A DNA stretch of 59,621 nt from a phage, in the sequence record PZ049713.1; one strand, written 5' to 3'. This document shows, one piece after another, positions 14,844 through 18,182 of the stretch; positions within the stretch are counted from its first letter, which is position 1; each line of letters starts with the position of its first letter. Under the pieces are notes generated by a model. The model saw only the letters and a list, made by a program, of their open reading frames with translations. It did not search any database and was not told where the DNA came from. The translations under genes were made by a program, and so were the position numbers.

Positions 14844-14985
14844 GGGTAATCCTTCAGACGAAAAAAAACCCGACTGGCGGGACGTAAACGAATGTCTCAA
14901 TCGGGTGGTGATAGTCGCCCCATTCGGGCATAATCCACGACTTCCTGAGCAGCGACTCTTTAGCTGTTATTACAAGGATGGGTAT

Positions 14986-16146
14986 ATGAGAAGCGCGTCA
15001 GGCATCTTTCTATTCGTGCTGTTCCCAGGATATTTCTTTTATCACATCGCATATAGCTTGGGCATGGTTCCTTATATTGGAATCTTCACAATCACTCTAG
15101 CCATTGCGTGTGGCTACTTCCTAATTAAGCTATTTATTGGACTTCTGAGAAATCCTTACCCGATAGTGTCATTTGCAGATGCATGCTTTGTTCTGTTAAT
15201 AATCACGCTGTCTGCAATTACCATCGTGAACCACACGCTTAATGACGGTGCGTATATCGATACGGACGGACTTGTGTTTAGCGCATCAATCATCGTATCG
15301 ATGACTGGGCTTTATTTTTTAGGGAGAAATATAGTTCTGGAGCAGCAAAAGAAATCGACGCTTGCAGCGCTGGCTTTACTAGCCGGATACCTCGCATGCG
15401 CGATAATTTTCTATCAAGAAAACGGCGGCTATATGCTGCTCCCCACTCCGAGCGAATCGGCGCCGGAGCCCTCAAATTATCAGGGCCTTGCCCGCTCGGT
15501 TATGTACTCGCTGATTTTCACTTTGCCCTTTATCAAGTCTGGGCTCATGAGATTCGTCTACGCTGCAGCCAGCCTAGCCTGCTTGTATTTGATCGGTTCA
15601 AGAACGGACTTCGCACTTTGCGCTATGGTGTTCCTGGTTTCGATGCTGATAAGGTCAAGCATTAGAGGCGCAGTTATGGCATATGGATTGATGATACTCG
15701 CCTTACCAGCCGCGCTTTATTTTCTCTACCAGTCCGACAGATTCGCGATCAGCTCCACCGACCCGTCACTTGTTGCGCGTGGAATATTCACCGAATCATC
15801 AATAGACGGAATTTCGGGTTCACCTATCCTTGGTGATTACCTCGGGCAGGTTAGAGACTTCGGCGACATTGGAAGTTACGCGCACAACGCTCTTTCCATG
15901 TACCAGCAATTCGGACTAATACCGTTCATTGCTTACATTGCATTCATTATTTTTAGCTTATTGATCGCAATCAAGTCTCTCGCTATAAATCGTCGATCTC
16001 CATACACAGAGCTTCTGCTGCATCTTTCCGTCGTTGCGCTGGCCGGGGTCTTGGTGGCGAAGTCAATACTCTGGACGACCCCAGTACTGGCCTGGGGTCT
16101 TGCGGTGAGCATAAGGAGAAATCGCTACGCTTGTATTAGGCCGTAA
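14986..16146 (+). CDS. wzy: O-antigen polymerase/ligase family (Wzy_C-like) polytopic membrane protein; lysogenic-conversion moron
   Basis: About 10 hydrophobic segments. C-terminal SYAHNALSMYQQFGLIPFIAYIAF matches the Wzy_C signature. Visibly AT-rich codon usage. Opposite strand to the flanking late genes. Confidence 0.75.
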   Translation: MRSASGIFLFVLFPGYFFYHIAYSLGMVPYIGIFTITLAIACGYFLIKLFIGLLRNPYPIVSFADACFVLLIITLSAITIVNHTLNDGAYIDTDGLVFSASIIVSMTGLYFLGRNIVLEQQKKSTLAALALLAGYLACAIIFYQENGGYMLLPTPSESAPEPSNYQGLARSVMYSLIFTLPFIKSGLMRFVYAAASLACLYLIGSRTDFALCAMVFLVSMLIRSSIRGAVMAYGLMILALPAALYFLYQSDRFAISSTDPSLVARGIFTESSIDGISGSPILGDYLGQVRDFGDIGSYAHNALSMYQQFGLIPFIAYIAFIIFSLLIAIKSLAINRRSPYTELLLHLSVVALAGVLVAKSILWTTPVLAWGLAVSIRRNRYACIRP

Positions 16147-18182
16147 CCCTTCCATGATCCAGGCGAGCCCGCTACCACGCAAACCCAGCCGCTGTACTGG
16201 CCTGCGGACGGATATCTATTAACTACTCTGTCGCCGGAGTTCCATGTGCCGGTTGTAGGTATGGCTGTGCCGAACCATTCCTTACCGAAGTTGCCCGCTT
16301 GGAGGGTTTCGTAAAGGTACAGGACACCCCCTACAAATTGATTGTCAGCATAATATCGAAGCGGCTCGGCAGGGTTCTTAAAGCGCATTGCAGTTACACG
16401 GAAGCCACTCACAGTATTGCGCGCCACTGACATTGTTGACTGAGTGCCCGATTCGATGAATATGCCGTGCTCCATGAGCGTGGCGTTACCGCGAATGGTA
16501 TTCCCAGTGATTTCTTTCTCTGACCCTGCGGTGATATGAATACCCAAGCCAGCACCGATGCCGCCTGCACGCCCAACATCCTCCAGCTTGTTATTGCTTA
16601 TCTTTGCACCTACACCGTTTGCGTCGAAAATGCCTTGATACTGGGTTTGGCGAATACTGTTCCCGGTCGCAACTAGGTTCGAATACTGATCAAAATAAAG
16701 GCCGGAACGACCCACTACGGCGACAGAGTTGCCTGTAACGTTGGCGTCGGCCGCATACCGAACCGCAATACCATCTTGACCAACGTTAGCAATCGTATTG
16801 CCCGTAATGGACAAGACCTTGCAGCGCATAGGAGTAGCCGTTGGCCCGGTGTTGATAACCTGAATACCGTCACCACCAGACACACCGCTGATCGTGTTAC
16901 CCGTGATTGAAACCGAACCGCTGTTGCCGCCGCCAGCGTCATAATTTTGAACTTTCAGACCTGACGCAACGGTGTTGCGGATAGTGTTACCAGTAATCGA
17001 AAGCCCAAAAATGCCCGTGTCGCAGTACAAGCCATGCTCGGTAACGATGTCGTGTATCACGTTGCCAGTGACGGTCACATTCTCTGAAAGCTGCCCGATG
17101 ATTCCGCCAGACGCTGTTCCCGATATTCTATTACCAAACACATTTATGTTTTTGCCAACCAGGGTGAAGCCTGTTGTGTTTCTGTAGTTGGGGTCGTTCA
17201 GTACCGCGGCACCCGGACCATGAACAACGTTGTACGCGAAGGTCGCACCGTCGACAGGGAGGTTTGTCATCACCGGCGAATATCGGAAATCACGGAAGAC
17301 GTTACCGATAATTTGCAGATTGATCGCTTCGGAGCCGCTGACCCCGATAGCTTGCGATGCTGGGCTATTTACATAGGTCGCCTCGTCGGCACCAATCAAC
17401 TCCAAACCGGTCACGGTTACATCAGACAGGCCATCAGCATCGAACAGTACCGTTTGCACCGCCGTTTGCCGGATCACTGCATGCCGCCCTGACAGATAAT
17501 GGCCAGACCTTAGCTGGAGCTTCCCATTGACCAGGTAATGATCACTCGCGTCACCGAAATCGACGTATAAGCCTGCATTCAGCGCAGCTTGGATTGCCAC
17601 CGTATCATCAGTAACCCCGTCCGCTACCGCGCCGTAAGAACGAGGGCGCACCGTCTTGTCGCTTTCTAGTATTTCAGCGACGGTCCGCGTACCCAGTCGT
17701 ACAAGACTAGCGCCTTCCGCTGCCGCCAACTCCTGCCGCAGCACGTCATCCCCAAGCAGCACGAGGCTGGCAGAGTCAGTCGCCCAAGTGCCAGTGAGCT
17801 CCAGAGGAAGCGTAGCGTCAGGGCCGGGCCGGTAGAGGCCTGCGGTCGTACCGGTAGTGGCCGCATTGACTGCAACGTACTCGTTCCGCTCCTCCAGTAC
17901 GACATTGGCCGCATAGTCGCCCTTGCTCACATAGCCGGAAGACACGAGAAACGCCTGGAACCGGCTCTCCTTATCGGCCTGACTCAGTGTGAACGCGGTT
18001 TCGCGGCCTTCCTGCGCATTGTTGAAGCTGTTTTCCATGCCGGACCACGACTCGCGCAGCTTGCCCAGTCGGTCGGCATAGAACGGATCTGCGCCGTTGA
18101 CCAGCTTGTCGAGGTTCTCGGCGTTGTCGTACAGGTCGCGCGGATCGGTGGACGGGACGTTGTTGCCGGTATTGAATGTCAT
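16125..18182 (-). CDS. Tailspike / tail fibre with pectate-lyase-like right-handed beta-helix (polysaccharide depolymerase)
   Basis: N-terminal MTFNTGNNVPSTDPRDLYDNAENLDKLVNG. YGAVADGVTDDTVAIQAALNAG. Repeated ITGNTI/VTGNxI beta-helix coils. Confidence 0.85.
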   Translation of the reverse strand: MTFNTGNNVPSTDPRDLYDNAENLDKLVNGADPFYADRLGKLRESWSGMENSFNNAQEGRETAFTLSQADKESRFQAFLVSSGYVSKGDYAANVVLEERNEYVAVNAATTGTTAGLYRPGPDATLPLELTGTWATDSASLVLLGDDVLRQELAAAEGASLVRLGTRTVAEILESDKTVRPRSYGAVADGVTDDTVAIQAALNAGLYVDFGDASDHYLVNGKLQLRSGHYLSGRHAVIRQTAVQTVLFDADGLSDVTVTGLELIGADEATYVNSPASQAIGVSGSEAINLQIIGNVFRDFRYSPVMTNLPVDGATFAYNVVHGPGAAVLNDPNYRNTTGFTLVGKNINVFGNRISGTASGGIIGQLSENVTVTGNVIHDIVTEHGLYCDTGIFGLSITGNTIRNTVASGLKVQNYDAGGGNSGSVSITGNTISGVSGGDGIQVINTGPTATPMRCKVLSITGNTIANVGQDGIAVRYAADANVTGNSVAVVGRSGLYFDQYSNLVATGNSIRQTQYQGIFDANGVGAKISNNKLEDVGRAGGIGAGLGIHITAGSEKEITGNTIRGNATLMEHGIFIESGTQSTMSVARNTVSGFRVTAMRFKNPAEPLRYYADNQFVGGVLYLYETLQAGNFGKEWFGTAIPTTGTWNSGDRVVNRYPSAGQYSGWVCVVAGSPGSWKGYGLIQA

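Follow-up and report, generated by a model that had tools for sequence, protein, structure and literature searches.

The gene at positions 14986 to 16146 of the phage sequence record PZ049713.1 probably encodes a Wzy-beta-type polymerase, carried as a lysogenic-conversion moron that would re-link the O-units of the host so that the polymer recognized by the phage's own tailspike changes. The window is the whole stretch of 59,621 nucleotides that was analysed, and all coordinates refer to it. A previous reading made from the sequence alone (the sequence-only reading) had proposed an AT-rich O-antigen polymerase gene placed antisense in the late operon and convergent with a beta-helix tailspike, in the manner of the serotype-converting Pseudomonas phage D3. 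Sequence and profile comparisons now place the gene in one family with the beta-O-antigen polymerase of D3, whose function has been tested. The features concerned are listed below (GC3, GC content at third codon positions).

14986..16146, plus strand: wzy-beta-like gene, 386-aa polytopic inner-membrane glycan polymerase (predicted), with conserved R206, R252, R265, H300-N301 and G310.
14882..14985, plus strand: cassette-specific upstream region; DNA homology to Pseudomonas phage PS-1 and to the prophage L074 ends at 14881.
16125..16146: 22-bp overlap of the convergent 3' ends of the wzy-like and tailspike genes, with no terminator between them; the same overlap occurs in prophages L002 and L003, and a 35-bp overlap in L011.
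16125..18182, minus strand: tailspike of 685 aa, in which a right-handed beta-helix comes after an N-terminal virion anchor.
17511..18182, minus strand: N-terminal anchor of the tailspike (aa 1-224), a backbone part that is 74% identical to residues 1-228 of PS-1 gp77; GC content 0.598.
16263..17510, minus strand: central beta-helix of the tailspike (aa 225-640), swapped relative to PS-1; GC content 0.525, GC3 0.56.

A word-indexed protein search returned 8-10 relatives of the wzy-like protein, and an exhaustive profile search recovered 2,440 cluster representatives (clusters at 50% identity) at E <= 1e-3, with 554 at E <= 1e-30. When a profile of 58 sampled relatives was compared with D3 Wzy-beta (NP_061525.2, taken from NC_002484), both aligned end to end over 369 columns (hhalign 99.9%, E 8e-34). 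A direct BLASTP comparison of the two proteins, in line with the search against phage wzy genes that the sequence-only reading had suggested, gave 23% identity over 324 aa (E 2e-9). The hidden Markov model (HMM) of the family scored D3 Wzy-beta at 207.7 bits and the solved O-antigen ligase WaaL (7TPG) at 25.6 bits. The relation to D3 surfaced solely through these direct pairwise and profile comparisons; a tblastn search against 50,697 phage records did not recover D3 and had the Variovorax phage VarioGold as its sole match. Sequence searches of the PDB gave no match with an 11-sequence profile, and WaaL alone, weakly, with the 58-sequence profile.

Previous work has shown that D3 Wzy-beta depends on four residues, R254, R270, R272 and H300, in a periplasmic loop (PL4) that was mapped experimentally to the periplasm, and that the PL3 arginines R147 and R151 (RX10G) are each singly dispensable (Taylor et al., PMC4815439). 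Three of the four essential residues are kept in the wzy-like protein, where R252, R265 and H300 align with R254, R270 and H300 of D3, and R252, R265, H300 and G310 are invariant or nearly so across the family. The motif that had been quoted as a Wzy_C-type signature contains H300, N301 and G310, all of them invariant or almost so among the relatives; they align with the essential H300 of D3 (HX9G). The AlphaFold2 model of the protein (predicted local distance difference test, pLDDT, 79.9; predicted template modelling score, pTM, 0.82) has about 12 long helices and hydropathy agrees with it, as expected for the polytopic membrane protein that had been claimed. The large loop region of the model (254-310) aligns with PL4 of D3 Wzy-beta, and the predicted fold is WaaL/SEDS-like.

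We inspected polysaccharide clusters of chromosomal relatives (L007, L012/13, L078 and L079). The relative P0008 lies immediately after wzx and P0005 lies in the same operon as wzx, a few genes downstream of it; the clusters of both hold wbpB/D/E-, wbpG/hisH/hisF- and fnlABC-like genes, and P0010 and P0011 are likewise found within polysaccharide clusters. Across the loci of species-representative genomes (L015-L073), polysaccharide markers were present within 7 kb in 57 of 59 and Wzx in 48 of 59, and a WbpA/B/D/E homologue was found in 42 of 59, often together with fnlABC-like genes; these counts are not independent because many of the genomes are related Oxalobacteraceae. A single locus among the 59 was phage-borne (a VarioGold prophage). 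In the scan of species-representative genomes, identity over a substantial part of the protein never exceeded 33%, and Pseudomonas yielded no relative at that level. WbpA, WbpB, WbpD and WbpE constitute the pathway to UDP-2,3-diacetamido-2,3-dideoxy-uronic acid, and wbp- and fnl-type clusters make O-antigen in Pseudomonas. The co-occurrence of the Wzy family with wbpA/B/D/E suggests a common class of repeat unit, the same as that of the Pseudomonas aeruginosa O2/O5 unit on which D3 Wzy-beta acts.

The position of the relatives beside wzx in repeat-unit clusters speaks against a ligase and favours a polymerase. A ligase of the WaaL type or a different Wzy_C/GT-C enzyme, for example an O-oligosaccharyltransferase like PglL, would transfer glycan to lipid A-core or to protein, and the WaaL-like fold brings such enzymes to mind. 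This identity is highly improbable, since the family profile gives 208 bits for D3 Wzy-beta, a tested polymerase, against 26 for WaaL, and since the chromosomal relatives occupy the wzy position by wzx and not core-oligosaccharide clusters. There was no solved O-antigen Wzy among the fold-search matches, so that the WaaL top match may mirror no more than the structures available.

The tailspike gene that converges with the wzy-like gene encodes a predicted enzyme-type beta-helix receptor-binding protein, as judged from its model and its structural neighbours. Pfam detected Beta_helix (E 1e-26) and NosD (E 4e-12), PHROG assigned the protein to tail fibre and tailspike families, and PF12708 gave a sub-threshold match on the GAVADGVTDD motif. 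The AlphaFold2 model reached a pLDDT above 90 over residues 180-685, and the neighbours listed by Foldseek, with modest TM-scores, comprised the mannuronan epimerases AlgE4 and AlgE6, the lyase RbmB and the tailspikes of Det7, Pam1, HK620, Sf6 and APK16, all of which agrees with the beta-helix tailspike described by the sequence-only reading. The fold search returned generic beta-helix neighbours only and gave no substrate assignment. Because enzymes of uronate polymers top the Foldseek list and the Wzy family co-occurs with wbpA/B/D/E, there is a hint, and only that, that the O-unit is an acidic diacetamido-uronate one, similar to the unit of the P. aeruginosa O2/O5 serogroup on which D3 acts. 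The anchor of the tailspike is common to PS-1 and many other phages, and relatives of the central beta-helix occur at 47-71% identity in other temperate and lytic phages.

The same structural neighbours include exopolysaccharide (EPS) and alginate enzymes, and Wzx/Wzy pathways make capsules too. The gene could thus encode a genuine polymerase for capsule or EPS, as does the prophage Wzy of Acinetobacter baumannii that re-links K units; single prophage wzy genes that alter the capsule are documented (PMC9241936, PMC13228068). We consider this unlikely, since the closest tested relative acts on O-antigen (PMC4815439) and the chromosomal relatives reside in wbp-/fnl-type clusters.

As for the gene itself, ATG 14986 is in frame with the stop of the plus-strand open reading frame (ORF) at 16146 and is preceded by a Shine-Dalgarno sequence, AAGGA, at 14974-14978; the ORF is full length and intact, and the 386-aa start agrees with the 98%-identical relative P0001 and with more distant relatives. 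Its GC content is 0.475 and its GC3 0.53, compared with a GC content of 0.605 for the window and a GC3 of 0.80 for the tail tip gene J, and the GC dip spans the wzy-like gene plus the central part of the tailspike gene. The wzy-like gene is on the plus strand, and Rz, the putative endolysin, the tailspike and J are all on the minus strand. AT-rich codon usage, antisense placement between endolysin and tailspike, and the 22-bp overlap at the 3' end, which is identical in L002 and L003, were therefore found as they had been described. Because its 3' end overlaps the tailspike gene, the wzy-like gene has no terminator of its own. The region from 14882 to 14985 presumably holds its lysogenic promoter.

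In prophages L002 and L003, which carry the 98%-identical wzy, an IS630-family element encoding a 345-aa DDE_3 transposase (L002 8879-9982) is inserted at the equivalent of window positions 14968-14972, that is, 14-18 bp upstream of the wzy ATG and immediately 5' to the Shine-Dalgarno sequence; the window lacks this element.

The backbone of the phage is about 81-89% identical at the DNA level to Pseudomonas phage PS-1. DNA homology ends at 14881 and restarts at 17725, leaving 14882-17724 unmatched, so that the block that differs from PS-1 measures about 2.84 kb and comprises the wzy upstream region, the wzy-like gene and the receptor-binding part of the tailspike, in agreement with the GC dip over wzy and the central tailspike. 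At the protein level, residues 1-224 of the tailspike are 74% identical to PS-1 gp77 and the last 45 residues 51% identical, with an unrelated central beta-helix between them. In PS-1 the slot is empty: 48 bp separate the tail-fibre gene gp77 from gp78, which is followed by Rz. The insertion of a moron, as had been proposed, is consistent with the empty PS-1 slot and the deviant GC content; the segment without a PS-1 match is larger than a single gene, since it also takes in the receptor-binding part of the tailspike. Comparison with L002 (10001-11161) revealed 15 differing sites in wzy (synonymous divergence, dS, 0.02); for the tailspike, dS was 0.61 over the N-terminal domain and 0.14 over the central part. 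From these values, wzy seems to have been exchanged more recently than the neighbouring tailspike.

Phage-borne relatives that are 33-38% identical to the wzy-like protein are also convergent with a tail-fibre or tailspike gene. These relatives (P0003, P0004, P0007 and P0009) are located between lysis genes and such a gene in four other phage backbones.

Backbone 1 (L004/L005): myophage-like contig with baseplate J.
Backbone 2 (L006): Mu-like prophage.
Backbone 3 (L009/L010): Pseudomonas prophage.
Backbone 4 (L011): another siphophage.

The wzy-like protein of L009/L010 has a cluster member in P. urethralis labelled 'hypothetical protein'. The occurrence of one arrangement in five phage backbones at 33-38% identity implies long retention.

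A different converter occupies the slot in L074, a prophage of Stutzerimonas nitrititolerans (GCA_002392095.1). There, a convergent gene at 8111-10093 encodes a 660-aa O-acetylase (Acyl_transf_3+SGNH) that is 29% identical to D3 Oac, next to a tailspike that is 59% identical to that of the window over its full length; the left backbone junction is identical, at 14881. The corresponding stretch of D3 runs from a tail protein through iap, oac, wzy-beta, HNH and endolysin to attP and integrase. The comparisons with L074, D3 and PS-1 therefore identify the slot beside the tailspike as a place where temperate phages repeatedly harbour one or another O-antigen modifier. The kinship with D3-like serotype converters that the sequence-only reading had suggested is thus upheld by the common Wzy-beta family and the common position of the D3 conversion unit, together with the empty slot of PS-1 and the O-acetylase in that of L074. 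Lytic-type phage contigs with related tailspikes carry no converter.

We also considered whether tailspike and converter are always inherited together. This was ruled out by the 59%-identical tailspike of L074, which is accompanied by an O-acetylase, and likewise by the comparison with L002, in which the dS of wzy is 0.02 and that of the flanking tailspike 0.14-0.61.

A broader proposal, which we put forward tentatively and as the less probable outcome, is that the wzy-like gene and the receptor-binding domain of the tailspike might form a portable cassette that reads and rewrites the receptor. With its junctions fixed at the anchor domain of the tailspike and, on the other side, at the terminator hairpin before the endolysin gene, such a cassette would move among unrelated temperate phages, namely PS-1-like siphophages, baseplate-J myophages and Mu-like phages, and would have an interchangeable converter, Wzy-beta-like or O-acetylase for related tailspikes. 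Even with no inhibitor, the lone polymerase would suffice for the protection of lysogens, perhaps through a mixed-linkage O-antigen of 2,3-diacetamido-uronate units.

Neither a homologue of D3 Oac nor one of the L074 O-acetylase was matched anywhere in the window. A tblastn search of the window with D3 Iap, a small membrane peptide that blocks the alpha-polymerase of the host, gave no match either (best E 0.41), which leaves room for an unrelated inhibitor, and no hydrophobic ORF of 25-70 aa was found within 13600-18400. The wzy-like gene therefore constitutes a single-gene module with neither O-acetylase nor inhibitor, as had been anticipated. When D3 wzy-beta is the only D3 gene expressed in PAO1, under its native promoter, O-antigen with alpha and O-antigen with beta linkages are made side by side (PMC4815439). 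Since an Iap-type inhibitor is missing from the window and D3 wzy-beta alone gives both linkages, conversion by the wzy-like gene may be partial and produce mixed linkages.

On the reading that we favour, a Wzy-beta-type converter, the product would be an inner-membrane GT-C-like enzyme that joins Wzx-flipped, undecaprenyl-diphosphate-linked repeat units into O-antigen or a similar polymer. Polymerization would occur on the periplasmic face through the large periplasmic loop bearing R252, R265 and H300. In a lysogen, with the late operon silent, transcription of wzy would start in the region upstream of it (14882-14985), and the phage enzyme would compete with the host polymerase for the same O-units, linking them through a different bond, probably beta by analogy with the polymerases that bear Wzy_C. 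This would alter the polysaccharide bound and cleaved by the phage's own tailspike and reduce adsorption of phages of its type, which would amount to self-exclusion. During lytic growth, late transcription would run antisense through wzy.

Several observations weigh against this reading. Pfam Wzy_C (PF04932) matched the wzy-like protein with 19 bits (E 1.2e-3), below the cutoff of 31.7, and searches of NCBIfam and PHROGs with the protein gave no match. Of the Wzy_C signature previously claimed, family membership and the conserved motif (H300/N301/G310) hold, and Wzy_C was matched by 42 of the 58 sampled relatives at E <= 0.01 (best 9.4e-10); the protein's own match remains sub-threshold and spans residues 193-283, with the quoted motif outside it. 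As the Pfam match alone fails the cutoff, the assignment is carried by the profile comparisons, the genetic context and the fold. The essential R272 of D3 aligns with I267, and the stretch aligned with PL3 (142-164, ENGGYMLLPTPSESAPEPSN) has neither Arg nor Lys, so that R147 and R151 of D3 are unmatched. The ratio of nonsynonymous to synonymous divergence (dN/dS) of wzy against its closest relative, L002, is based on 15 changes only and is uninformative on selection. The scan for promoters and terminators found no sigma-70 consensus on the plus strand upstream of wzy. In L002 and L003 the insertion splits wzy from its upstream region, and therefore the gene is not always kept functional. Finally, the target polymer could be capsule or EPS, and conversion could be incomplete or absent, since the window has no inhibitor of the host polymerase.

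Part of this evidence would also fit a passenger with no current effect that hitch-hiked with the tailspike module and is now silent or decaying, namely the missing promoter consensus, the IS630-family element close to the ATG in L002/L003 and the lack of a partner inhibitor. Such a state is very unlikely, since the ORF is intact and full length, the D3 activity residues are conserved and a good Shine-Dalgarno sequence is present; the recurrence of the arrangement in five phage backbones at 33-38% identity argues in the same direction.

The neighbouring backbone genes and sites are as follows.

14364..14843, minus strand: putative endolysin, named by position only; 86% DNA identity to PS-1 gp78; PHROG 3108 (phrog_3108, E 9e-48), function unassigned.
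13852..14367, minus strand: Rz-like spanin; Pfam DUF2514 (7e-13), PHROG 312.
18256..20958, minus strand: J-type tail tip protein.
12471..13652, plus strand: tyrosine integrase (Pfam).
12283..12630, plus strand: excisionase (PHROG).
Between 13653 and about 13826: attP.
14861..14881, minus strand: weak GC hairpin (4-bp stem) followed by T8, just upstream of the ribosome-binding site of the endolysin gene.

The label 'endolysin' used by the sequence-only reading is supported by position only; searches of Pfam, NCBIfam and PDB sequences gave no match and the PHROG has no assigned function. One PS-1 record only names the protein 'lysozyme', and it may represent an uncharacterised endolysin family. 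The prophage-host junction of L002 (about 7728, by the host thioredoxin gene) maps to about 13825 of the window, which places attP between the integrase gene and Rz; the genes of the window thus stand in the order of the excised phage. The window contains no tRNA gene. The excisionase and integrase genes are immediately preceded by a gene for a NinI-like Ser/Thr phosphatase (11563-12279, plus strand; PHROG 246, E 6e-67). In PS-1, gp76 (L001 3511-4098), an HNH endonuclease gene, lies between J and the tail-fibre gene, where the window has 73 bp only (18183-18255). The HNH gene of D3 sits beside wzy-beta.

The hairpin and T8 run that had been pointed out upstream of the endolysin start are present in the sequence. 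The stem is of 4 bp, the hairpin was missed by the terminator scan and its folding was no better than that of shuffled sequences (z 0.19). In PS-1, L002 and L074, stems of 7-8 bp are predicted, each with six G-C pairs and a T-run behind it, and they lie equally far from the endolysin start; their sequences differ, with compensatory changes. The hairpin is therefore a weakened copy of a conserved terminator-like element of the backbone, not a part of the moron. The element comes immediately after the tail-fibre gene in PS-1 and borders on the cassette junction. In the window, 1.28 kb of antisense wzy and the terminator-like element stand between the late tailspike gene and the lysis genes.

Regarding the assembly, positions 1-7480 are a reverse-complement near-copy of 7587-15083 (98.4% identity, with 52 mismatches and 65 gap positions); together the arms make a palindrome that is centred near 7535 and has almost no spacer. 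Within the near-copy, wzy is represented by its first 98 bp (1-98) and the endolysin gene by a frameshifted version (about 241-720). The first 7.5 kb are probably a fold-back chimera of long-read assembly, and the wzy-like gene was analysed in the clean copy (14986-16146), not in the fold-back copy. Positions 7468-8391 are repeated directly at 58684-59607, the last 924 bp, with 99.9% identity, from which a unit of 51,216 bp, circular or permuted, can be deduced.

With these results, the Wzy-beta family of the D3 type reaches far past P. aeruginosa and numbers about 2,400 clusters at 50% identity; the few database names met among the relatives were 'hypothetical protein' or 'O-antigen ligase family protein'. 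They also define, in one Stutzerimonas/Pseudomonas siphophage lineage (the window, L002/L003 and L074), a fixed slot on the tailspike side for alternative O-antigen converters. Where a polymerase is prophage-borne, the chromosomal O-antigen locus alone mispredicts surface structure, which concerns host-range prediction and serotyping. The principle is already established, and the gain consists of an annotation and a testable example and not of a new mechanism.

Phage-borne polymerases are established for D3, Salmonella epsilon15 and A. baumannii prophages, and the wzy-like gene is a distant new example whose function we infer. Like D3 Wzy-beta, its product belongs to the Wzy-beta family, has 386 aa and conserves the residues corresponding to R254, R270 and H300, and like the D3 unit (iap, oac and wzy-beta), the gene occupies a slot between a tail or tailspike gene and the endolysin gene, near attP and integrase and antisense to the late genes. 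It differs from D3 in that identity is 23%, that neither iap nor an O-acetylase gene is present, that R272 and the PL3 arginines are not kept and that the backbone is of a Stutzerimonas type related to PS-1, with a different host; the tailspike shares only its N-terminal 190 aa, at 32%, with D3 orf27.

Tailspike-adjacent layouts are known in other phages, with a beta-polymerase plus inhibitors in epsilon15, gtrABC in P22 and oac in Sf6. Salmonella epsilon15, P22 and Sf6 resemble the window in having a receptor-modifying gene beside that of an O-antigen-cleaving tailspike. However, they represent other phage lineages, epsilon15 has inhibitors, and the gtr and oac products glucosylate and acetylate, respectively. 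The epsilon15 polymerase also carries Wzy_C (Table 2, PMC4815439).

The prophage Wzy of A. baumannii is similarly a lone polymerase outside the chromosomal polysaccharide locus, and the abstracts on it describe no inhibitor alongside it (PMC9241936, PMC13228068). The enzyme changes the linkage of capsule K-units and not of O-antigen. VG_p25 of Variovorax phage VarioGold ('O-antigen ligase family protein'), the only tblastn match in an isolated phage (22% identity, E 4e-4), is reported to be 31% identical to D3 Wzy-beta and to be encoded by a moron-like gene beside the lysis genes (PMC9658991). In contrast to the wzy-like gene, it follows the lysis cassette instead of lying in the gap between tailspike and lysis genes, and three small proteins, membrane-bound or secreted, come with it. 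WaaL of Cupriavidus metallidurans (7TPG/7TPJ) and the SEDS polymerases RodA and FtsW resemble the predicted fold; their sequences are remote (26 bits for WaaL) and their context and reaction differ.

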